Source of the DNA: Escherichia coli | GTDB taxonomy: Bacteria > Pseudomonadota > Gammaproteobacteria > Enterobacterales > Enterobacteriaceae | Reading direction: 5' to 3' (one strand) | Assembly (NCBI RefSeq): GCF_016026235.1 | Contig: NZ_CP065613.1 | Length of the DNA: 64,000 nt | In this document: positions 29,586 through 41,875 of the stretch, in pieces | Position numbering within the stretch: position 1 is the first letter of the stretch | How the letters are laid out: every line of letters begins with the position of its first letter | Translations under genes and position numbers: made by a program | The notes under the pieces: model-generated | Told to the model about the DNA's origin: nothing | Databases searched by the model: none | What the model saw: only the letters and a program-made list of their open reading frames with translations

Positions 29586-30051
29586 TGTAAACCTCTTTCG
29601 CACGAACCGTAAAAGCCTGGACCATATTAGACGCCAGCTCTTTAAACACGCGACCAAAGGCGAGTTCAATCAACTTATTGGTAAACTCAAAGTCGAGATG
29701 AAACTCGATACGACACGCCTCCTGGCTCAGCGGCGTAAACTTCCATCCACCAATCAATTTCTTGAACGGCCCATCCACCAGATTCATAAGAATACTTTGG
29801 TTACTGGTCAACTGGTTGCGGGTAGTAAACGTTTTGCTGATCCCAGCCTTAGAGACATCTACCGCCGCAGTCATCTGCCCAGGAGTGGACTCCAGAATCC
29901 GACTTCCGGTACAACCCGGCAAAAACTGAGGATAAGACTGAACGTCATTCACTAACTGATACATTTGCTCCGCGCTGTAGGGTACCAGTGCGGTCCGGCT
30001 AATCTGAGGCATAACAATTTCCATCAACAAAAATCCAACAAATAATATCAT
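29575..30051 (-). CDS. ratA: ribosome association toxin RatA (YfjG; SRPBCC/polyketide cyclase fold)
   Basis: 158 aa ORF ...[34 protein letters not shown]... Confidence 0.88.
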
Positions 30052-30182
30052 TTATCCTGCTGTAAAAAAAACGCTATCCCGGCGCTGGGTAACATCGGGT
30101 TCATGCTAAGATAGAGCCTTGTCCCCCGCAGGATTGATATGGGGTGTTTTCGATTTCAGATTACCGATGATTCACGACGCTT

Positions 30183-30665
30183 ATGACGAAGAAAAAAGCA
30201 CATAAACCTGGTTCAGCGACCATCGCGCTTAACAAGCGCGCCCGTCACGAATACTTTATCGAAGAAGAGTTCGAAGCGGGACTTGCCCTGCAAGGCTGGG
30301 AGGTTAAATCCCTGCGCGCAGGAAAAGCCAATATCAGCGACAGCTACGTCCTTCTGCGTGACGGAGAGGCATTTCTGTTTGGCGCTAACATCACGCCAAT
30401 GGCCGTGGCCTCCACGCATGTGGTGTGCGACCCTACCCGTACCCGCAAGTTACTTCTCAACCAGCGCGAACTGGACTCATTGTACGGTCGCGTCAATCGA
30501 GAAGGCTATACCGTAGTGGCGCTCTCCCTGTACTGGAAAAATGCCTGGTGCAAAGTGAAAATCGGCGTCGCCAAAGGTAAGAAACAGCACGATAAACGTT
30601 CAGATATCAAAGAGCGCGAATGGCAGGTGGATAAAGCGCGTATCATGAAAAACGCCCACCGTTAA
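30183..30665 (+). CDS. smpB: SsrA-binding protein SmpB
   Basis: 160 aa [45 protein letters not shown]... Confidence 0.96.
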
Positions 30666-30879
30666 ACCTGTACTCCAATTATTGACCAGTTCCTCACCGC
30701 GCCTCCCTCTCCGGCGGCGCGAATGAACATCTTATTGGTTATCACATCCGACACAAATGTTGCCATTCCATTGCTTAATCGAATAAAAATCAGGCTACAT
30801 GGGTGCTAAATCTTTAACGATAACGCCATTGAGGCTGGTCATGGCGCTCATAAATCTGGTATACTTACCTTTACACATT

Positions 30880-31242
30880 GGGGCTGATTCTGGATTCGAC
30901 GGGATTTGCGAAACCCAAGGTGCATGCCGAGGGGCGGTTGGCCTCGTAAAAAGCCGCAAAAAATAGTCGCAAACGACGAAAACTACGCTTTAGCAGCTTA
31001 ATAACCTGCTTAGAGCCCTCTCTCCCTAGCCTCCGCTCTTAGGACGGGGATCAAGAGAGGTCAAACCCAAAAGAGATCGCGTGGAAGCCCTGCCTGGGGT
31101 TGAAGCGTTAAAACTTAATCAGGCTAGTTTGTTAGTGGCGTGTCCGTCCGCAGCTGGCAAGCGAATGTAAAGACTGACTAAGCATGTAGTACCGAGGACG
31201 TAGGAATTTCGGACGCGGGTTCAACTCCCGCCAGCTCCACCA
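30880..31242 (+). ncRNA. ssrA: tmRNA (SsrA), 363 nt
   Basis: Begins GGGGCTGATTCTGGATTCGACGGGATTTGCG, contains the tag-encoding segment GCAAACGACGAAAACTACGCTTTAGCAGCTTAA (ANDENYALAA) and ends with the tRNA-like GGTTCAACTCCCGCCAGCTCCACCA. Confidence 0.97.
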
Positions 31243-31445
31243 AAATTCTCCATCGGTGATTACCAGAGTCATCCGATGAAGTCCTAAGAGCCCGCACGGC
31301 GCAAGCCCTGCGGGCTTTTTTGTATCTGCAATTTGTCCCGCGAAGTCCGAAGAGAACTAATTAAATCCGAACCTTTTAGGCCCATTGATAGGCCCAACGA
31401 AAAGCTCTATTGTTTTCGTTGGGCCTAAACGCATGGAGACTCCCC

Positions 31446-32687
31446 ATGGCAAGAAAAACCAAGCCGTTAACCGATACGGAAATCAAAGCCGCCAAACCTA
31501 AAGATGCCGATTACCAGCTGTATGATGGTGACGGGCTTACTCTGTTAATCAAGTCCAGTGGTAGTAAGCTCTGGCAGTTCCGTTACTATCGACCTCTGAC
31601 AAAGCAGCGAACCAAGCAGAGCTTCGGTGCCTACCCTGCCGTCTCACTTTCTGATGCGCGTAAACTCAGAGCCGAATCTCGAGTTTTATTGGCAAAAGAT
31701 ATTGATCCTCAGGAACATCAGAAAGAACAGGTGAGGAATTCTCAAGAGGCCAAAACCAACACCTTCTTGTTAGTTGCCGAGCGTTGGTGGAATGTGAAGA
31801 AAGCCAGCGTGACAGAGGACTATGCCGACGATATCTGGCGCTCGCTTGAGAGAGATGTTTTTCCAGCAATCGGTGATATCAGTGTCACTGAGATTAAGGC
31901 TCATACTCTGGTTAAAGCAGTTCAGCCGGTTCAGGCTAGAGGTGCATTAGAAACTGTTCGCCGTCTTTGTCAGCGTATTAACGAAGTCATGATTTATGCG
32001 CAGAACACGGGCCTGATTGATGCGGTTCCCAGCGTAAATATCGGAAAAGCGTTCGAGAAGCCTCAGAAAAAGAACATGCCGAGCATCCGGCCTGATCAAC
32101 TGCCTCAACTGATGCAGACGATGCGAACAGCAAACATCAGCCAATCAACACGATGCCTGTTCATGTGGCAGCTTCTTACTATTACCCGTCCTGCCGAAGC
32201 CGCTGAAGCTCGATGGGATGAGATCGATTTTGAAGCTAAAGAATGGAAAATTCCTGCAGCTCGAATGAAGATGAACCGGGACCATACGGTTCCATTGTCT
32301 GATGGAGCTCTCGCTATTCTGGCAATGATGAAGTCACTCAGTGGTGGCCGAGAATTTATCTTTCCTAGTCGAATCAAACCAACCCAGCCGATGAATAGCC
32401 AAACAGTGAATGCAGCACTCAAACGTGCTGGATTGGGAGGCGTTCTCGTTTCTCATGGCTTGCGTTCTATCGCCAGTACCGCCCTTAATGAACAAGGCTT
32501 CCCACCTGATGTTATTGAAGCGGCGCTGGCTCATGTGGACAAAAATGAAGTACGTCGCGCTTACAATCGCAGCGATTATCTTGAGCAGAGACGCCCGATG
32601 ATGCAGTGGTGGGCAAACCTTATAAAAGCGGCAGATAGTATTCCTACCGTTTGTAACGAAGTAGCAGGTCTTAGATTGGTTGGGTAG
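31446..32687 (+). CDS. intA: P4/CP4-57-type tyrosine integrase (site-specific recombinase)
   Basis: ORF 31410..32687; start taken at MARKTKPLTDTEIKAAKPKDADYQLYDGDGL (413 aa); sits directly 3' of ssrA, the classic attachment site of CP4-57-like elements; C-terminal HGLRS and Y-containing catalytic region. Confidence 0.9.
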   Translation: MARKTKPLTDTEIKAAKPKDADYQLYDGDGLTLLIKSSGSKLWQFRYYRPLTKQRTKQSFGAYPAVSLSDARKLRAESRVLLAKDIDPQEHQKEQVRNSQEAKTNTFLLVAERWWNVKKASVTEDYADDIWRSLERDVFPAIGDISVTEIKAHTLVKAVQPVQARGALETVRRLCQRINEVMIYAQNTGLIDAVPSVNIGKAFEKPQKKNMPSIRPDQLPQLMQTMRTANISQSTRCLFMWQLLTITRPAEAAEARWDEIDFEAKEWKIPAARMKMNRDHTVPLSDGALAILAMMKSLSGGREFIFPSRIKPTQPMNSQTVNAALKRAGLGGVLVSHGLRSIASTALNEQGFPPDVIEAALAHVDKNEVRRAYNRSDYLEQRRPMMQWWANLIKAADSIPTVCNEVAGLRLVG

Positions 32688-32698
32688 TGGATTTAAAA

Positions 32699-32750
32699 TC
32701 TCAAGTGATTATCCTTAGAAAAGATAATCACTTGAGATAATTGAAATTTT
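32699..32750 (+). terminator. hairpin terminator after the integrase gene
   Basis: Perfect inverted repeat TCTCAAGTGATTATC-cttagaaaa-GATAATCACTTGAGA followed by AATTTTTATT. Confidence 0.7.
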
Positions 32751-33162
32751 TATTGGATTAAGGCAAAACCATGCTACATTAATTAAGATAGTTTAAAATA
32801 GCATTTATATAGATATATGTTACACTTTCTAAAAAAAATCGCGAAAAAGGAAATATGATAACAATCATATTTTAGAAGTTGACATAATACATACCAAATT
32901 TATCGTGCTATGAACACTACATTAACCTTTTATTTTTTCATAACAAGCAAGCAAAAATGATGAATACAATAGAAATTCACCGCAAACAACCAAACATAAC
33001 TCTAGCCCAGCACATACAAAATAAAAGACTACAACTTGGAAAAGAAATCTCCAAAAAATACAAGATTTATCTCGACTTAAGGTTCTGGTTTTTTTTAGAG
33101 ATATTGAGCTTGGGAATAATAACGATCGAGACTTAATTAATCTCCTACAAAAAATAAAGTAC

Positions 33163-34032
33163 TTGGTTGATAATGGAAAGGTAGTTTGCCCTATATCTGC
33201 TACTGTTTTTTTAGAACTAATGAAACAGAACGATATCGAAACAAGGATGGCCACAGCCAAAATTATTGATCATCTGAGTTTTGGAGTTACACTTATAGCT
33301 AGTCATGAGAGAGTCAAACAAGAATTATGTAATGCTACGTATTCGATTTTGGGAGCTAAGGACAGCATTCCAATTGATCAATTAGTATGGACCAAACTAA
33401 GTTATATTTTCGGCGATTACCATCCATACGATACATCTTTCGATGCAGCTGAAGAACTGATCATTCAGAAATCTTTTTTTGATCATATGTGGGATATTTC
33501 ACTCGTTGAAATGATGAACCATATCAACTATGAAAGCTGGGAACAATTTGATTGGCAGAAAACAACAGAAATGCTTAACTTGGCTAATAAAGAGCATACC
33601 AATGAGCTTAGAAGCTATCAACACGCATATCGTATTGAGTTCGACGGAGTGTTAAGCCTTTTCAACGAGCAATTAATCCAGATATTCAAAGAGGCTTACA
33701 AGGCCGGATATAACAATGATGAAATTAATAATAAGAAAAAATCAAAAAATGAAAAACTTAAACAATTTGCACAATTAGTCCGTACTTTACATATTGGTGC
33801 CTCTTGTCATGCTGCAGTAAGATGGGATCAGAAACGCCAGCTCAATGGTAATGATCTTTTAGATTTTCATCATGCCGAAGCAGCTTTAGGATATTGTGAT
33901 TTATTTTTGACTGAAAAACCTTTGAAAGTTCTAGTGAGTCAAGAACATTTGGGATTAAGAGAATTATTCTCATGCTCTGTTGAGTCATCAGCTAGTGAAG
34001 GGCTCAAGATACTTAACATGTGTAAAATATAA
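33163..34032 (+). CDS. hypothetical protein, AT-rich island cargo (no family recognised)
   Basis: 289 aa ORF (TTG start in the track; the true start may be an internal ATG); low GC; convergent with the 565 aa gene. Confidence 0.55.
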   Translation: MVDNGKVVCPISATVFLELMKQNDIETRMATAKIIDHLSFGVTLIASHERVKQELCNATYSILGAKDSIPIDQLVWTKLSYIFGDYHPYDTSFDAAEELIIQKSFFDHMWDISLVEMMNHINYESWEQFDWQKTTEMLNLANKEHTNELRSYQHAYRIEFDGVLSLFNEQLIQIFKEAYKAGYNNDEINNKKKSKNEKLKQFAQLVRTLHIGASCHAAVRWDQKRQLNGNDLLDFHHAEAALGYCDLFLTEKPLKVLVSQEHLGLRELFSCSVESSASEGLKILNMCKI

Positions 34033-34068
34033 AAATTAAGAATATTTCATATTACTAAATCTATAAAC

Positions 34069-34100
34069 TTTAGAGGTCATTTTCATAATTGAAGCTGACC
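34069..34100. terminator. hairpin between convergent island genes
   Basis: AGAGGTCA-ttttcataattgaagc-TGACCTCT inverted repeat. Confidence 0.5.
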
Positions 34101-34185
34101 TCTCACCCGCTCGATAAGTCTCACACAACTATGACTAAGATTGGCAAGTATTATCCCCCCCAATTATCATCTATTACAAAAATAG

Positions 34186-35883
34186 CTAATCATCTATTTT
34201 AAAATCAAAAATCCTTAAAATATCATTAAATGATGCTTCACATTGCCCCACAAGGCTAGTGAAGTGTGCACGTAGATTTTCATGATCGGTACGCGCTTCT
34301 AATATCGCTTTCTTCTTTTTTTCTGTAGAAGCATGTCCGCGTACTTCGGTTCGTAGAGCATGCAGTTTTTGCATAGGCTGAACTAACATTTTCGCTTCAT
34401 CTACTGTTGCACTTTTAGCAATAAGAGCTTCTTGTAGTATGCGCAAGGATCCCCATTTGGGTTCAATGATTCGGCCCTCATATTTAGCAATTTCACTCAG
34501 TGGCTTTGGTAAAAAGCCCTCAACTAAATACTGATCAAGCGCAAGGATTTCATCACCCCACTCTTTGATTGAATCTGTTGCAGGATACTGAACAGCGCCA
34601 CTCAATACTGTACCCCGTGGCTTCCACCAGGTGGGAGGATTCTTGTCCATTAGCGAAATTTTGTGTTTGAGTGCCAACAATGGTTCATTGGACAGATACC
34701 ATTCCCCAACAATATCCGTCTGAAATGCACGCTTAGAAATTGTTCCTTTTGGCCATTCATTGAAGGCTTGCCAATAGAGCTGTTCTTCATAAGGTAAATG
34801 AGCCAAATCACCAATGTATACATGAACTTGCCCGGCCTCATTAATATCATAGGATTTTAAATACCAAGCATTTCGACAAGCAATACTTCTTTCATCTAAA
34901 GTATATTTTTCTGGATCCGCCTTGAAACGATGTAACACTTCTGCTCTAAAAAAGGCAGGTGAAACTTCCCACGGTAATTTATTTTCTTGAAAATAGTTAG
35001 ATAGTGAGTCTGGTCCGCAAGATGTTTCAACATTGCAGCTATTTTTACGATCGTATATTTTAAAGGTTGCGTATTTCCTTTTAGATGGATTATCTTCATC
35101 CTTCCATGCTTTTACCAGACCGCGCACAGTTACTTGAGGGCGAATGATCATTACACCATTACAGTAACTGGCTTCCCCGTTAATACCACCATGATAAAAA
35201 AGACTCCCTTCATCTTTAGTATATCTGTTGATATTCCCCCAGCCAGCAAAATTACCCCATCTGACACGTGTAAAATCAAACTTTAAAACAAGACATGTTT
35301 TGGATAAAGCCATGAATGTATCTAAATCCTTTCTCTTAATAGTAACTATATCCAGATAGTTAAAAGGAGGTGAAATATTTTTGTTAATTATCCTGATTAC
35401 ATCTTCAATATCACCCCGTTCATCGAGACGACAATATGCATTTCTTTCTGGCAAGTAATATAACCCAAGGCTGTGCACAAGTTTCTGACTTAATTCGATA
35501 GGTGCACGGCCTTCTTCAACGCCATGAAACCTACGACGATAAATTAATGCCTCTCCCCCTTTGAACACCCCATCTAAAGGTGGCTCAAGATAAATACGAT
35601 GTCCTTGACCTCCACCCCATGACTTTTGAATCTTCCAACAATACTCAACATCCATACGCATATTCTGCAATGCCCATCTATCTGCTGTAGTAACATTTTT
35701 CTCTAGAGCTAGCGCGCCATGAATTAGGACACTATTTCCAATCGCGTAGATAACCACTTCATCATTTTGAGCATTTTCTTTCAGAAATTTAATTGACCTT
35801 TCAGCCTCTATTAACCAAGCGGCATCATCATTCTGTGGCTTTTCCGAAATAGCATGAAGCTCTGTGAATTTAAATTGGCTCAT
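34186..35883 (-). CDS. hypothetical protein, 565 aa (island cargo; no family recognised)
   Basis: Long uninterrupted ORF starting MSQFKFTELHAISEKPQNDDAAWLIEAERS...; AAGGA upstream of the ATG; lies directly downstream of the STAND operon. Confidence 0.7.
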   Translation of the reverse strand: MSQFKFTELHAISEKPQNDDAAWLIEAERSIKFLKENAQNDEVVIYAIGNSVLIHGALALEKNVTTADRWALQNMRMDVEYCWKIQKSWGGGQGHRIYLEPPLDGVFKGGEALIYRRRFHGVEEGRAPIELSQKLVHSLGLYYLPERNAYCRLDERGDIEDVIRIINKNISPPFNYLDIVTIKRKDLDTFMALSKTCLVLKFDFTRVRWGNFAGWGNINRYTKDEGSLFYHGGINGEASYCNGVMIIRPQVTVRGLVKAWKDEDNPSKRKYATFKIYDRKNSCNVETSCGPDSLSNYFQENKLPWEVSPAFFRAEVLHRFKADPEKYTLDERSIACRNAWYLKSYDINEAGQVHVYIGDLAHLPYEEQLYWQAFNEWPKGTISKRAFQTDIVGEWYLSNEPLLALKHKISLMDKNPPTWWKPRGTVLSGAVQYPATDSIKEWGDEILALDQYLVEGFLPKPLSEIAKYEGRIIEPKWGSLRILQEALIAKSATVDEAKMLVQPMQKLHALRTEVRGHASTEKKKKAILEARTDHENLRAHFTSLVGQCEASFNDILRIFDFKIDD

Positions 35884-35927
35884 GAGTAATATTCATATCC
35901 TTTTACTTTATCTATAACTGACATCAC

Positions 35928-35976
35928 TTATAAGTTATAAGTTATAAGTTATAAGTTATAAGTTATAAGTTATAAG
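35928..35976. repeat. perfect tandem heptanucleotide repeat (TTATAAG)x7
   Basis: 7 exact head-to-tail copies read directly from the sequence, in the 120-bp gap between the stop of the 482 aa gene and the start of the 565 aa gene. Confidence 0.95.
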
Positions 35977-36002
35977 TTCCCCTTATGAATTAAGAAATAA
36001 CA

Positions 36003-37451
36003 TCAAACAAATACCACCCCTCTCGTAATTTTTTCACTGAATCTGCCATAACTTCCATTACGATGGAATCTACGTACTTGCCAAGAGTAAAATGAGCGCA
36101 ATGACCCGGTATTTGTTATGTTTCTCTCGCGATATGTAGTGCCTCGCGATATGAGGGCTGTCCCACAATTACCTTGAATTTGCCCTAGCCTAGCTGGCCC
36201 CCATCCAGCATTCCAATAATAAAGCTCTGCGACGACTAGGTCCTTTAACTTAACCTGTAGACGCCCATCATGCGGGATGACTTCAAGAGAATTTTCTATG
36301 CCTGGCATCGTCGGTAAAAATAACCGGGATGGATACAAATCATGTTGTAGGTATCCTATCCGACCAAAATCGAGCATTCCCGCCAATGGCCAAGCCATAC
36401 AAGTTTTATTCACCAGTTGTTCAAAAGTTGGTGGAGTTATTAAGGTTGTTGTACTGAGTGGATCCGGAGCTTGGCTGGAAAGCATTTGTTCACGTGTCCA
36501 GAACGATTCAATATGGGATGTCAACGAGTCCGCTCCTTCCTTATCACTGCTTACAGTTTGTGACCACCGAACAATCGACAACTCTACGCACTGTTCCATT
36601 GACATTGAAATGGGCGAGCTAAATGCAATTAGCTCGTCTCCTGGGTTTGCCGCCTCTACTTGAGCAAAGAAAGTTCGCAATGAAGCCTCGATCGCCTTAC
36701 TATCACTTTTGAATTCAGTCGATACTGAGAGCCATTCGGGACGATAAGGTCGAAGAAAAGCCAAAGTTGGATGGATAGGCAACGCCAAGAGAGAATGTTG
36801 CTCGGTCAACTCCATTGGTATCCTCCAGATGTGTCTAGCCACAGCTAACGTGCGAAGATAAGCGGAAATTACGCGAAGGGCTGTTCGAGAGGAAAAATGA
36901 GGGGCAAAGCCCTCTCCCAAGGGCCGAATGAAATATCCTGCATCCCCTTGGTACGGTGCATTTGGATATGCCGTCCGGTTTTTTGTCCATTCGAAGGCCA
37001 TTTGTCGAATAAATGGACAGCGGGTAAAAGTTTCCAACTTGCTAATGGTTATATGGAAGATTCTTGGCAAATCCGTACCTTGAACACTATCAAAGTCATC
37101 GGGAATGATGAAGTCTTCTGGAGCTAGTTCCAAATCAGTATTCATGAGCAGAATCGATAACCCAAAATCTTTCATCAACAATGATGAAAGTGGTGAGGGT
37201 AGAAGAATATTCTCTGCCAACAAAGTCGTAGGAAAGTAGTTAAACTCTTTAATTGCCATCCAGAAAATACATAATACTTCGACAACCTCGGCTTCAAGTT
37301 TGCGCGAGCGCAGCAATTGAAGCAGCAATGATTCGGTTTCAGCTTTCGTCTCAGGCTCTCCCAGTCGAGCGGCAAGCTCCTGGATAGTCCACCACCGAGC
37401 AGACGTAGCAGGCCATCCAAGACGGGCAATAAGAATGCGAAGATCGTTCAT
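36003..37451 (-). CDS. hypothetical protein, about 482 aa, third gene of the STAND operon
   Basis: ORF 36003..37496; start more likely the ATG at 37451 (MNDLRILIARLGWPATSARWW...) because it overlaps the stop of the upstream gene as ATGA. Confidence 0.7.
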   Translation of the reverse strand: MNDLRILIARLGWPATSARWWTIQELAARLGEPETKAETESLLLQLLRSRKLEAEVVEVLCIFWMAIKEFNYFPTTLLAENILLPSPLSSLLMKDFGLSILLMNTDLELAPEDFIIPDDFDSVQGTDLPRIFHITISKLETFTRCPFIRQMAFEWTKNRTAYPNAPYQGDAGYFIRPLGEGFAPHFSSRTALRVISAYLRTLAVARHIWRIPMELTEQHSLLALPIHPTLAFLRPYRPEWLSVSTEFKSDSKAIEASLRTFFAQVEAANPGDELIAFSSPISMSMEQCVELSIVRWSQTVSSDKEGADSLTSHIESFWTREQMLSSQAPDPLSTTTLITPPTFEQLVNKTCMAWPLAGMLDFGRIGYLQHDLYPSRLFLPTMPGIENSLEVIPHDGRLQVKLKDLVVAELYYWNAGWGPARLGQIQGNCGTALISRGTTYRERNITNTGSLRSFYSWQVRRFHRNGSYGRFSEKITRGVVFV

Positions 37452-40400
37452 TTCACTTCCTGGGCGATTGGCTCGAGCAGTTTTGACATCCAGCAAGGTG
37501 GTTCTAAGGGCAAGGTCCGAGTATCCTCAATCACACAATTAACCATCGTCTCTGTGAACTTTACAGCTTCATCAATGCGATTTTGCTTAACGTAGAAATA
37601 GACCATAACTTCCGATGGAGCTAGGCGTGACGACACTGGCTCATCAAACATGTTGTAGGTTGTTACGGCCACAAATTCATCACAGCGCTGCGGATAATTT
37701 TGGACAACCAGGTCGAGTCTTTTGCAAGTCACATCCACGTTCTCCATGTAACCAATCCATCCCCCATTACGGATCTGTGCATGAACAAGATACTTCCAAG
37801 CTGCAGTTAAGCCACTTAATCTACGTTTTGTTTGAAATGCAAACTCGGAAAGATGTAGAGCTTCCCTCATCCATTTGTTGTTTTTTGCAAATAAAATCTT
37901 ATCCAGTTCGACGAGTAAATTTCGCCCCTGCTTTTGGCTTTCCCAGTGCTGATACCAAGTACGGAGAAGTTTTGGACGCTCTTTGTAATATGGTTCCAGA
38001 ACTTTGAGCAAGTCTTCCAATTGTTCAGGTCTAAAGACCGTCACATCACCTTCATAAGGTTTATTGTCAGCGTCACTACTTGAATTTTCGTGGCGTTGTA
38101 AACAACCAATATCCCATCCATTATGCTCTTCAAGAATGCGAAGCCGCTCGGAAGCAGTTGTACAACCATCCTCTACAAGTTGTTGAAGTGTATCCCGAAT
38201 TTCGGGATGAAGGCCTGTGCGCATTAGAGCATCCAGAGGCCACTCTTCAATGATTCCCTGTTTGATGTAGGCCTGCATACTGCTCTCGGCCAAAGCCCAG
38301 TCACCCACACATGTATGCTCTTCAAATTTTATTACCAATGCGGAAGGCTTCAGCTTTGCCAGTAGCCGATCTGCTTCAGCAAGAACATGTCTCGTACCCT
38401 TACCATCGGTGTAATCCAAAACATGGTGTATTTGCGGCGCAATTTTAGCCAGTAACCGACAAGCTTCTTTCGGCACTACATCAACTAAATAAGCGATGGC
38501 ATCAACCGTATTACTCAGTGTCGGATCTTTACGATGTCCGTATCCAGTGGTCAATTCCCACGTCTGCGTGCAAAGCTCACGAGCCTCCGAATTCAGTTGA
38601 TGGGAGATCGCTATCGCACAGAGTTGTAATGGTATTTGAAGATGTACACTGGTCTCATTTTGAATGTCTGCATCAAGTAACAAACGTTGAGCGCCAATGA
38701 ATGTTATAGCCGCTTCGTCGGCCATTCTGATCAATGAACCAGATGCGTACTGAGTGCGGAATGACGCACTATCGAACCAAGCGCATTGCAACGCAGCATC
38801 AATAGTCGATTGGGAAAGTACCACAGCACTAGTTCCCGAAAGCAGAACACTACCAATATATATATCGCAAGCAATACGGTGTAGTGCCGCTTGAAAGTCC
38901 GCCGTTGCCGATTTTCTAAAATAACTTTGTCTAAATCGCCGCGATTCAACAGGCTCGAGTAATTCATACAGCTCATGGAAGTTGATGAATTCCCCACACC
39001 ACCATCGTTGGGCTATTTGTGCACCAATTCCGGACAGTACATTGAGATAATCAGTAATATCTTCTCTATCTTCGTACATAGGGGCTTTGATGTGCTCGAA
39101 GTTTGTTTGCCCTTCTGCAATCATACAAAGATTCAGATGTACGGCACCAAACAGCCAGTGGTGCGTGAGAGTTGCCAAATTATCTTTGTGTTTGTAATAG
39201 CTGTCGCTTATCCAGTTCACCGGGATTGGTTGGCTCGAAGGAGTTGAGGTTTTGATTAACGCGACCTCTATTGCAGCCACAAATGGAGTTCTGACAAGTT
39301 CGTCGAAGTCCTCTCGCTCGGTCACTACTACCCCTGCAACCGCAGCCGCTCGTATACAAGCATCGCTAATTATGTTCTTTTTCTGTCCATCGGGTAGAGA
39401 AGCTGCTAGCAACATTAAATCATCCAAATTACCTTTTTGAATCAGCATTTGAACGCGAGGTAACCATATGTCCGGGCTATTTTTGTCGACTAACCAAGCG
39501 AGATTTTCAGATGTATCAGCGATAACGCCAAGCTGTGTAAATGCACTGGCCAGAAACAAGAGTTCATCAGAACCAGCCCTTGAATTATATTTATTGGAAA
39601 ATTGGCATAGGGCTCTGAACCGATGAAAGGCTTCTTCACCGCAAATTTCTGCCTGAATAATATCCCCTCGAGACAGTAAGGCCAGACCAAGTGCAACAAC
39701 GTGTAAAATATCCGTTTCATGCCTAGAGGCTATAGACTCACGTATCACACTTTCCTCTGAGGTTAGTGTCAATGTAAAAGATATGAGCCTAGCCAGATCG
39801 CTATCCTGCATCTGAAATTGACTTCCATCAACCATACGAGCTTTCAGATGCGCCAACCGGTAGGCATCTGAAAAATTTGCAGTTTCAAGCGCAGCGCTCA
39901 GGGCTTCTGACAATAATATCTCAAATAAAGCTTCTGAATATCCTTCTTTTAAGCGACTCATGATCCAGTCACGAGTTAAACCTGTAATGAGATTGTTGGG
40001 GTTACCAAGCTTCGCTTGAACTGTCCATAACCAGTTCACTCGTAGTGAAGTAGGTGCCTGATGTTCAAGCCAGTCTGCAATAACAGGCATTAATTCATTG
40101 ATTCGACTCTCATAGTCATCAGTTGCACGTACGAAAACAGCCAAACTTTCATGGAAGACTTTAAGACCAGCCACAGACGAATGGAGCAAATGCTCTACTT
40201 TATCCACATCTGGTTCCACCGCCTTAATTTTGGTAGCAATCTCTGAGAAGGCTGTCTTAGGCCAGAAAAAAGTAAAGGCACAGATAAGCCTTAGCGTATC
40301 CTTTTGGCTTGGAGCAAGACGTTCCCATAGAGATGCATAGTAAAATCGGGCGTCTTGGCTCAAGTCTCCCTTCAACTGCTCAATATCCCAACTGGATAGT

Positions 40401-41875
40401 CTGCGACCCGAATGTTTCAATTCTGATGTAGCATAAATAACGTGAAGAGGATGGCCATTAGTTTTCTTACGAAGAGCGGATGCTGCACTCTGCAGTTGTT
40501 CTTCAATTTGTTCTTCACTTTCAAAACCAGTTGTAAGCCAGCCTTCTTGAACTGTTCTACGTAGATAAGAAAGTACTGCACTCTCAGACATTGCAGGCAA
40601 TGTATGCCACTCAGATTTTGGTGCAAAGGCGAGCAAATCCGCTGGCAACTGTTCGTCATTTACCGGTTGAGTGCCGACGAGCAGTACCATATTTTCCGGG
40701 CAGGGAATTACCTGACAGAAAAGGTCATCTAGTGGTCGTTTATCCTCAGCGTTGATACGCCAGACATGATCCAAACCATCAAGAATGAGCACAAATGGCT
40801 TTCCCAGTACTTTGTAGTGGGCAGCACATGCCTCCAATTGTGTATGTAAGCCTCCACCAGTTTTCGGGACATCCTCGTGAAACTGTTGGATCTGCGCCAG
40901 AATGGATTGCTCGACAATGTAGCTATTAACCCGGTCGCGGCCTCGCTCGGTTGTCGACAGAAAATAGTGATGGCGAACCGTTGGGATACCTTTTTCTGCA
41001 AGCGTGTCGCACAGTGCGCTCAGGTAAGTACTCTTTCCGCGTCCTGGTGGACCAGTCAGCACAATTGCCTTTCCGGTAGCATTAATTGTGCTCTGGACAA
41101 ATTCTTGATGGAATATTTCATCAGGAACCTCATAACCTTCTGGAACAACAAAATCCTCTGGCAAAGGAGCTGGAGGTGAAGCTCGCAAGATGGTTCCAAC
41201 CTCTGCCAGTTTAATCCAGCCATCCGGCGCAGGGAGATTTTTTTGCGTTGCCCAATTCAGAGCCACATATTTTAGATTAGCGATTCCCTCTGGCGTACCA
41301 TGCAGTCGAAGGCGAGCATCAACTTCATGCTCCAATGCAAGATAGCCCTTATCGCTGTGTCGAATACATAATTGTCTGAAGAAAAGTTTGCATTCCTCAA
41401 CGCCGCCGAGTTCAACTTCTACCAAGGTGCGCTGAGGTTCTGGGATCTTAGAAGGATCAATCCGGTCTCGTTCCAGACAAACCTCAATAGCAGCATCTGG
41501 TCGGCGATTCGTTATGAGCGAAATTTCGCCAATACGCACTGGATCAAGTTGTTTGAAAGCATCGAACCATTTGCGTAGCATCGATCTCGACCGCTCTGTC
41601 TTGCCCGTTTTCTCCAGCATCCAATCCCAAGATAGAAGATGCGTCTCAGAATCTGGGGTGAACTTGATCTGCTGAAGGTCAACGAAGCCATCACTTCGTT
41701 CGATGACGATATCATCTAGTCCCTGTGGTGCTTCGTTTTCATTATCACATTCAAATTTCACGCGGCTATAGCGCGTCGGCGCATCAAGCCAATCGCACAG
41801 GACCTTAAGGCCCTGGCGATTTTGATAAATATAACCAGCTGCAGTGATGGCGGTTTTCTTAATATCTTCACTCAT
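37448..41875 (-). CDS. STAND-class P-loop NTPase (NACHT-like) with N-terminal nuclease-like domain and long C-terminal helical region; candidate anti-phage sensor/effector
   Basis: 1475 aa; Walker A VLTGPPGRGKST, Walker B FVLILDGLDHV (hhhhDGLD, NACHT-type); N-terminal ~250 aa contain ...GLDDIVIERSDGFVDLQQIKF (D...QxK, restriction-endonuclease-fold-like); C-terminal ~1000 aa helix-rich with no enzymatic motif. Confidence 0.8.
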   Translation of the reverse strand: MSEDIKKTAITAAGYIYQNRQGLKVLCDWLDAPTRYSRVKFECDNENEAPQGLDDIVIERSDGFVDLQQIKFTPDSETHLLSWDWMLEKTGKTERSRSMLRKWFDAFKQLDPVRIGEISLITNRRPDAAIEVCLERDRIDPSKIPEPQRTLVEVELGGVEECKLFFRQLCIRHSDKGYLALEHEVDARLRLHGTPEGIANLKYVALNWATQKNLPAPDGWIKLAEVGTILRASPPAPLPEDFVVPEGYEVPDEIFHQEFVQSTINATGKAIVLTGPPGRGKSTYLSALCDTLAEKGIPTVRHHYFLSTTERGRDRVNSYIVEQSILAQIQQFHEDVPKTGGGLHTQLEACAAHYKVLGKPFVLILDGLDHVWRINAEDKRPLDDLFCQVIPCPENMVLLVGTQPVNDEQLPADLLAFAPKSEWHTLPAMSESAVLSYLRRTVQEGWLTTGFESEEQIEEQLQSAASALRKKTNGHPLHVIYATSELKHSGRRLSSWDIEQLKGDLSQDARFYYASLWERLAPSQKDTLRLICAFTFFWPKTAFSEIATKIKAVEPDVDKVEHLLHSSVAGLKVFHESLAVFVRATDDYESRINELMPVIADWLEHQAPTSLRVNWLWTVQAKLGNPNNLITGLTRDWIMSRLKEGYSEALFEILLSEALSAALETANFSDAYRLAHLKARMVDGSQFQMQDSDLARLISFTLTLTSEESVIRESIASRHETDILHVVALGLALLSRGDIIQAEICGEEAFHRFRALCQFSNKYNSRAGSDELLFLASAFTQLGVIADTSENLAWLVDKNSPDIWLPRVQMLIQKGNLDDLMLLAASLPDGQKKNIISDACIRAAAVAGVVVTEREDFDELVRTPFVAAIEVALIKTSTPSSQPIPVNWISDSYYKHKDNLATLTHHWLFGAVHLNLCMIAEGQTNFEHIKAPMYEDREDITDYLNVLSGIGAQIAQRWWCGEFINFHELYELLEPVESRRFRQSYFRKSATADFQAALHRIACDIYIGSVLLSGTSAVVLSQSTIDAALQCAWFDSASFRTQYASGSLIRMADEAAITFIGAQRLLLDADIQNETSVHLQIPLQLCAIAISHQLNSEARELCTQTWELTTGYGHRKDPTLSNTVDAIAYLVDVVPKEACRLLAKIAPQIHHVLDYTDGKGTRHVLAEADRLLAKLKPSALVIKFEEHTCVGDWALAESSMQAYIKQGIIEEWPLDALMRTGLHPEIRDTLQQLVEDGCTTASERLRILEEHNGWDIGCLQRHENSSSDADNKPYEGDVTVFRPEQLEDLLKVLEPYYKERPKLLRTWYQHWESQKQGRNLLVELDKILFAKNNKWMREALHLSEFAFQTKRRLSGLTAAWKYLVHAQIRNGGWIGYMENVDVTCKRLDLVVQNYPQRCDEFVAVTTYNMFDEPVSSRLAPSEVMVYFYVKQNRIDEAVKFTETMVNCVIEDTRTLPLEPPCWMSKLLEPIAQEVK

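Follow-up and report, generated by a model that had tools for sequence, protein, structure and literature searches.

ApeA is a validated anti-phage system that consists of a single HEPN gene (Gao et al. 2020) and is represented in E. coli by Ec1ApeA (WP_000706972.1). ApeA assembles into doughnut-shaped decamers and cleaves tRNA anticodon loops, and Ec2ApeA is activated by 5'-phosphorylated deoxydinucleotides that bind between its N-terminal and HEPN domains, in a pocket (10.64898/2026.01.26.701840). Further, Ec1ApeA also cleaves RNA-phage genomes (10.64898/2026.03.20.713152). The N-terminal and Mid domains of ApeA are described as predominantly alpha-helical, the former catenin-like and the latter PafA-like (10.64898/2026.01.26.701840). 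ApeA-NTD1, which was defined computationally in 2013, is a domain of ~300 aa that consists mostly of beta strands, contains several conserved aromatic residues and is fused to HEPN (PMC3710099). Here we describe two convergent open reading frames (ORFs) in a 64,000-nucleotide stretch of Escherichia coli DNA (contig NZ_CP065613.1; hereafter, the window), which lie between an intA integrase gene and a STAND operon encoding proteins of 482 aa, 1475 aa (NACHT) and 1260 aa. The ORFs encode 289 aa (33163..34032, + strand, TTG start) and 565 aa (34186..35883, - strand, ATG start), as an earlier reading of the letters alone (the sequence-only reading) had correctly placed them. We conclude that the 565-aa protein represents a divergent branch of the ApeA-NTD1/HEPN architecture that has no annotation so far, belonging to a large family that current hidden Markov model (HMM) libraries miss, and that the 289-aa ORF represents the 3' portion of a broken gene for a PIN-domain nuclease (VapC-like fold), which is a pseudogene.

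The 565-aa protein had been taken for an orphan, which it is not. At least 991 clusters at 90% identity belong to its family, the best 120 of which align over the full length with 60-96% identity and come from sources that include Lonsdalea, Pectobacterium and Candidatus Nitrotoga. An exhaustive search of representatives at 50% identity returned 1,515 matches at E <= 0.001, including 379 at E <= 1e-30, and nearly all members are 550-590 aa long. When 88 sequences with identities down to 27% were aligned, seven columns were invariant (G243, P304, F312, W340, P364, W371 and R511) and H517 and H540 were conserved in at least 90%. The invariant or near-invariant aromatic residues are W23, F202, F274, Y297, F311, F312, W340, Y356 and W371. 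Residues 511-517 read RTEVRGH, in agreement with the Rx4-6H motif of the HEPN superfamily; the R-x5-H form is a hallmark of HEPN RNases. The very confident AlphaFold2 model of the protein (predicted local distance difference test, pLDDT, 94.5; predicted template modeling score, pTM, 0.88) shows ~25 beta strands in residues 42-356, whereas residues 400-558 are all helical and form a four-helix up-and-down bundle as in the HEPN superfamily.

Foldseek searches of AFDB50 with this model returned full-length matches to uncharacterized proteins with template modeling (TM) scores of 0.85-0.97. Among these were entries with the names "ApeA N-terminal domain-containing protein" and "Apea-like HEPN domain-containing protein", with TM scores of 0.87-0.90 and 31-37% identity; A0A941RNF2, A0A450U2X2, A0A972EKC5 and A0A1U6GIW2 aligned over ~565 columns with TM scores of 0.87-0.89. 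Sequence searches of the PDB with the single sequence and with the family profile gave no match. The sequence-only reading had been unable to assign a motif to either ORF, and models of Pfam, NCBIfam, PADLOC and PHROGs indeed match neither, because both families are invisible to standard HMM libraries even though the HEPN and PIN folds are clear. It had also proposed remote homology searches and structure prediction for both proteins; when these were run, the folds emerged clearly from the models and the sequence HMM libraries remained silent.

The 565-aa protein does not belong to the tested ApeA family and resembles ApeA in outline, in that one chain joins a HEPN effector to an N-terminal part without catalytic function. 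Its accession and N-terminal sequence differ from those of all 11 ApeA homologs that have been tested, so that it is none of these. The 565-aa gene is most likely a self-contained HEPN RNase gene of defense or abortive infection. By analogy with ApeA and other HEPN abortive-infection proteins, the beta-rich N-terminal domain would hold the HEPN RNase inactive until an infection cue is sensed; the HEPN domains, which presumably act as pairs within a dimer or a larger oligomer, would then cut tRNA or other RNA, and this cleavage would stop phage replication. The main functional alternative is that the HEPN protein does not act against phages and is instead a selfish toxin or addiction module stabilizing the island, or a weapon used between elements. 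HEPN domains are common toxins (PMC3710099), the 565-aa gene was always found in mobile elements, and identities of 60-67% across distant taxa suggest its frequent transfer. However, no conserved small partner gene that might encode an antitoxin accompanies it, its neighbors differ in each context apart from a 456-aa gene at two loci, and the large fused N-terminal domain suits a sensor-effector design such as that of ApeA. We consider this alternative quite unlikely.

The self-contained defense gene that we favor has also to be weighed against a role within the neighboring operon. The sequence-only reading had noted the co-orientation of the 565-aa gene with the STAND operon, and the start of the gene lies 119 bp past the stop of the 482-aa gene with a TTATAAG array in the gap. 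From this arrangement a fourth component had been proposed, for example one with an accessory or immunity role, and the protein could accordingly be a functional accessory of the NACHT/STAND system (a fourth component, an extra effector or a regulator) that is co-transcribed with it. In Escherichia, Photorhabdus, Serratia, Lonsdalea and Pectobacterium, the gene shares the strand of the 482-aa gene and follows it at a distance of 88-133 bp, and no terminator-like site was predicted in the spacer between the two. Further, the block 1260/NACHT/482/565 occurs in the same order with a spacer of 88-89 bp in Lonsdalea quercina (adjoining kdpFABC), Pectobacterium (adjoining an integrase), Photorhabdus tasmaniensis and, in part, Serratia marcescens, and the 565-aa and NACHT proteins diverge in parallel (74-95% and 81-91% identity, respectively).

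When one genome per species was scanned with an alignment of the 482-aa protein, however, 28 loci were returned, 25 of which were assessable (at least 2.7 kb downstream of the match), and 23 of these 25 lacked a 565 homolog in the 10 kb to either side. The two exceptions were Photorhabdus and Serratia. About twenty of the assessable loci keep the NACHT and 482-aa pair, in hosts such as Pseudomonas, Halomonas, Thiobacillus, Caballeronia, Cupriavidus, Variovorax, Undibacterium, Marinomonas, Morganella and Pantoea, among others. The 565-aa gene does not follow the operon across this phylogenetic range; the named organisms that carry it beside the operon (that of the window, Lonsdalea, Pectobacterium, Photorhabdus and Serratia, with a remnant of the operon at the additional locus L015) are all Enterobacterales. 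Conversely, four of the eight contexts in which 565 homologs were inspected had no trace of the operon. These homologs stood alone in mobile-element contexts, namely in a Tn7-like element that also carries an OLD-family nuclease and CHAT/TCAD7 genes (75% identity), near Fic/helix-turn-helix (HTH), Rep_trans and integrase genes (67%), in an integrative and conjugative element (ICE) with TraG/TraH (64%) and next to BrnT/BrnA in Nitrotoga (64%).

The gene and the operon are also lost independently of each other. We searched the region 32700-36000 against 5,426 complete E. coli genomes and found matches in 13, with identity of at least 99.6%. IS1 disrupts the 565-aa gene in three of the 13, in one of which the STAND operon is intact, and in E. 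coli FDAARGOS_943 most of the NACHT gene is replaced by IS600 with the 565-aa gene intact. Further, the NACHT protein already possesses its own nuclease-like N-terminus (PADLOC matches at residues 8-145), and the 565-aa protein has an architecture of its own, sensor plus HEPN. A domain shared with an operon protein was considered and rejected, since hhalign detected no profile similarity of the 565-aa protein to any of them, NACHT included. An accessory role in the NACHT/STAND system is therefore unlikely, and the co-occurrence at two of 25 loci, the operon-free homologs and the independent losses lead us to regard the 565-aa gene as a separable module that traveled with the operon in one Enterobacterales lineage and not as a core fourth component.

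Several points weigh against a self-contained, ApeA-like defense gene. The linkage to the NACHT operon persists down to ~75-80% identity in five genera with a conserved spacer, which is compatible with some functional cooperation. None of the 88 aligned family members matches the Pfam ApeA or HEPN models at E <= 0.1, and the PADLOC ApeA model (PDLC02157), which gave 1386 bits for the Ec1ApeA control, gave no score for the 565-aa protein or for 10 distant relatives; NCBIfam likewise returned no match for these relatives. For a direct comparison, the Ec1ApeA sequence, which NCBI labels 'HEPN family anti-phage protein ApeA', was taken from an E. coli genome; BLASTP found no similarity to the 565-aa protein (E > 1) and profile-sequence hhalign gave a probability of 0.1%. 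The sequence relation to Ec1ApeA is undetectable, and the analogy with ApeA is thus one of fold and architecture only. The RNase activity, oligomerization, trigger and anti-phage activity are all proposed by analogy, and our search of the literature found no experimental work on the family. In addition, the gene is dispensable, because IS1 disrupts three of the 13 E. coli copies.

The contexts of the 565 homologs and of the operon provided further observations. No conserved partner gene of the 565-aa gene was found: only a 456-aa protein recurs, in two of the eight contexts, and it is absent from the window. This protein (L017 11725-13095; L005 724-2094, - strand) is 76% identical between two otherwise unrelated loci, has no Pfam match and, in the Tn7-like element, is encoded 24 bp downstream of the 565 homolog on the same strand. 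At locus L015 (7037-9908; GCA_051987155.1), beside an intact and 77% identical 565 homolog, the operon has lost its NACHT gene, and what is left is a single 864-aa ORF, in which the N-terminus of the 1260-aa protein (residues 1-858) is fused to the last 106 residues of the 482-aa protein. A tblastn search of phage genomes found nothing, and a plasmid search returned 11 records, of which only two Pseudomonas aeruginosa megaplasmids were full length. No literature was found on the RefSeq accessions of the ORFs.

As for the operon, the pair of NACHT (1475 aa) and 482-aa genes (36003-41875 in the window; loci L018-L042) is kept in ~22 species of gamma- and betaproteobacteria. Only ~10 of these have a detectable 1260-aa gene, which lies once downstream instead of upstream (L030). 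The NCBI label 'multidrug DMT transporter permease' is widespread for the 482-aa protein despite the lack of a Pfam match and looks like a propagated misannotation.

The 289-aa ORF had been read as a gene in its own right and as an orphan. It is instead the downstream part of a broken gene of 358 codons that starts at 32957, and its reconstruction has 316 related clusters, mostly of 355-385 aa. The preceding 59-aa ORF reads ...KIYLDLRFWFF up to a run of eight T (T8), and the frame of the 289-aa ORF goes on ...RDIELGNNNDRDL...; the joined frames encode 358 aa with 67% identity over 100% of the length to a 358-aa protein of Klebsiella huaxiensis. In a DNA alignment, intact relatives read TGG ATA TTT TTT AGA at the site of the break, whereas E. 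coli reads TGG TTTTTTTT AGA. The same T8 lesion was found in all six other E. coli loci that were fetched, that is, in 7/7 copies including that of the window. Through this 1-nt deletion the first 69 residues, among them the first catalytic aspartate, are cut off.

The 358-aa reconstruction adopts a PIN fold. The family invariants D40, E87, D105 and D303 and the near-invariant T319-E320 occupy PIN active-site positions according to the alignment and the model, namely following strand 1, within helix 3, ahead of strand 3, where the last catalytic helix begins and following strand 4. An insertion of ~180 residues (116-297) separates strand 3 from the last catalytic helix, and a 33-residue extension precedes the fold. 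None of 60 family members matches Pfam, and PADLOC and NCBIfam gave no match either. In the alignment of these 60 sequences, Y38, D40, W44 and R48 are invariant, and all four lie upstream of the break. Since the D40 codon precedes the frameshift, D40 is absent from the 289-aa ORF, which thus lacks the full acidic active-site set that the family keeps. Moreover, the 289-aa ORF has no ATG and no obvious ribosome-binding site; its TTG start was picked mechanically. We conclude that the E. coli PIN gene most likely makes no active nuclease.

It might be argued that the 289-aa ORF encodes a functional, N-terminally shortened protein, such as a new gene product or regulator, or that slippage at T8 restores a full-length PIN protein. 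The ORF is intact in most E. coli copies, RefSeq annotates it as a coding sequence, and a homopolymer run does stand at the junction of the two frames. However, the shortened protein would lack the first beta strand of the PIN core together with Y38, D40, W44 and R48. A phase-variable tract was ruled out, since T8 is present in 7/7 copies from E. coli, where relatives have ATATTTTTT; compared with the latter sequence, the lesion is a deletion and not a tract of variable length. The missing start signals, IS1 insertions and a nonsense inactivation that arose independently in Photorhabdus also argue against a functional product, which we regard as very improbable.

The Photorhabdus tasmaniensis copy of the PIN gene (L018 13386-14465) is the closest to that of E. 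coli (92% identity) and keeps its frame at the E. coli break. It carries an in-frame stop at the near-invariant W179, which is independent of the E. coli 1-nt deletion. The E. coli deletion and the Photorhabdus stop together show that the gene was inactivated independently at least twice, and this repeated loss suggests that the protein is costly or useless in this island.

In five other contexts, PIN homologs stand alone in islands. The homolog of a Klebsiella ICE lies beside a Gabija-like OLD and UvrD pair and a PIN_12 gene; that of Agrobacterium is near an integrase gene, a Fic gene and IS66; that of Citrobacter adjoins a P4-type integrase; that of Aeromonas is within a small island; and that of Oceanococcus is among AbiJ_NTD4, DUF4145, DUF4062, HNH and SNase genes. 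No small antitoxin-like gene recurs upstream in the window or in these five contexts. A pairing of the 565-aa gene with the PIN gene was also ruled out, since the two are neighbors only in E. coli and Photorhabdus: PIN homologs are absent from the 565 loci of Lonsdalea, Pectobacterium, L015, L017 and L004-L006, and the five PIN-homolog loci have no called gene of the size of the 565 family.

Both ORFs are part of the ssrA/intA island, in which their stretch directly follows ssrA (transfer-messenger RNA, tmRNA; 30880-31242) and the intA integrase gene (31410-32687; NCBIfam NF007246); the tmRNA was the sole Rfam match in 30000-37000. The region is chromosomal in all 13 matching E. coli genomes, and the order in annotated genomes is intA, the 289-aa and 565-aa genes (both "hypothetical"), the 482-aa gene, the 1475-aa NACHT gene, the 1260-aa gene and a tyrosine recombinase fragment. 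This second recombinase fragment lies ~0.3 kb past the 1260-aa gene in annotated E. coli genomes (L009 26065-26310; L010 25260-25505), and in L009 and L010 it is followed by genes for an HTH regulator, a 240-aa hypothetical protein and an inovirus Gp2-family protein. Because of the recombinase fragment beyond the 1260-aa gene, the ~13-kb block of PIN remnant, 565-aa gene and STAND operon looks like a nested insertion, with intA on one side and older remnants of the island on the other. Both ORFs are more AT-rich than their flanks, as had been pointed out: the GC content is 0.29-0.43 across 32500-36000, compared with 0.46-0.53 on the core/integrase side and 0.43-0.49 in the STAND genes.

The AT-rich stretch carries IS1 insertions in at least five of the 13 E. 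coli genomes (L009 13056-13753; L011 8837-9534; L012 7460-8157). IS1 lies within the PIN remnant in two of the 13 (L009 being the one inspected) and cuts the 565-aa gene in L012. In two sister strains (Res13-Lact; L011 inspected), the 565-aa gene ends at IS1, the STAND operon and the remaining island are lost, and core genes (kbp onward) directly follow the truncated gene.

The convergent ORFs are separated by 153 bp, and the hairpin that the sequence-only reading had seen in this gap is present as an inverted repeat (Table 1). The RNA of the gap folds better than shuffled sequences (z = -2.9). The hairpin may be a bidirectional terminator; it has no clear T-run, and a terminator scan did not detect it. 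A sigma-70-like match precedes the PIN gene, and the number of such sites in the region was not above that in shuffled sequences (consensus scan only). The copy number of the TTATAAG heptamer is 3, 4, 6, 8 and 9 in five other E. coli genomes (L001, L009, L010, L012 and L013; flanks at least 99.6% identical), and the array is gone where the region is deleted (one of six other E. coli loci). No array was found at this position in Photorhabdus, Lonsdalea, Pectobacterium or Serratia. The array, which lies 45-95 nt upstream of the 565 start codon, behaves like a fast-changing variable-number tandem repeat (VNTR), and from this position it could affect expression of the 565-aa gene.

Table 1. Positions in the window of the two genes, their domains and motifs, and the elements around them.
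Feature	Position	Strand	Basis or remark
565-aa gene, beta-rich N-terminal domain (ApeA-NTD1-like) and C-terminal HEPN	34186..35883	-	intact here
Beta-rich N-terminal/middle region, ~residues 40-360, presumed sensor/regulatory domain	34804..35766	-	model secondary structure
Most conserved block of the family, residues 285-395	34699-35031	-	per-column conservation; junction of N-terminal region and HEPN
C-terminal all-helical region, ~residues 400-560, predicted HEPN RNase domain	34204..34686	-	
RTEVRGH codons (R511-H517), R-x5-H HEPN catalytic motif	34333..34353	-	read from sequence
PIN-domain nuclease pseudogene, 358 codons	32957..34032	+	two frames: 59-aa ORF 32957-33136, 289-aa ORF 33163-34032
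Codon of D40, first acidic PIN active-site residue, invariant	33074..33076	+	alignment; D40 right after model strand 1
T8 run, site of the 1-nt deletion splitting the PIN gene	33089..33096	+	DNA alignment with Photorhabdus and Klebsiella
Sigma-70-like promoter match TTGACA-16-TATCGT (10/12)	32879..32906	+	consensus scan; precedes the true PIN-gene ATG
Inverted repeat (hairpin) between the convergent genes	34072..34103	.	imperfect, 14-nt arms
TTATAAG heptamer array between the 482-aa and 565-aa genes	35928..35978	.	TRF (Tandem Repeats Finder): 7.3 copies, 100% match

Taking both parts together, the 565-aa gene as a HEPN defense gene and the PIN gene as a pseudogene, we think it likely that the two are unrelated cargo adjoining the intA integrase of the ssrA island, an arrangement that is fairly ordinary for a defense island. 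The suggestion that orphan genes here might provide a new defense system thus stands in part: the genes do lie in a defense-type island and the 565-aa gene is a plausible defense gene, but the 289-aa ORF is a pseudogene and offers no candidate system. A bolder proposal, which we hold to be conceivable but rather doubtful, is that the 565 family is a distinct single-gene anti-phage system whose N-terminal domain is a new kind of infection sensor, possibly with a fold in common with part of Avs3, and that in Enterobacterales it may be coupled to the NACHT/STAND operon with its expression tuned by the strain-variable heptamer array. If the family does protect against phages, a large and widespread HEPN set that the HMM libraries of defense finders miss would become annotatable, and a second, structurally different sensor domain could be set beside the recently solved ApeA. 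The corrected reading of the 289-aa "gene" as a decayed PIN nuclease removes a false lead, and the conserved unit of the neighboring STAND system is the NACHT and 482-aa pair rather than a four-gene block.

Compared with known systems, the PIN protein differs from VapC-type PIN ribonucleases in its length (358 aa compared with ~130 aa), its insertion and its N-terminal extension, and from VapBC toxin-antitoxin pairs in that no upstream VapB-like antitoxin gene was seen in the five contexts. The 565-aa protein, in contrast to Avs/NLR-like STAND systems (SeAvs3, PDB 8DGC), has no NTPase domain. Its N-terminal part is beta-rich in the model, in contrast to the predominantly alpha-helical domains published for ApeA. 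In other respects it is like ApeA: one gene (~570-600 aa) encodes a large non-catalytic N-terminal region and a C-terminal HEPN domain with Rx4-6H, the gene is borne on islands without a fixed partner, and the nearest solved HEPN structures are HepT-type toxins. The closest likeness in architecture and in full-length structure is to the ApeA-NTD1 plus Apea-like HEPN proteins ("ApeA/BMEI1217" family; Anantharaman et al. 2013, PMC3710099); the 565-aa protein differs from those so named in UniProt in having no match to the Pfam profiles ApeA_NTD1 and HEPN_Apea, and shares with them the fusion of a beta-rich N-terminal domain to HEPN.

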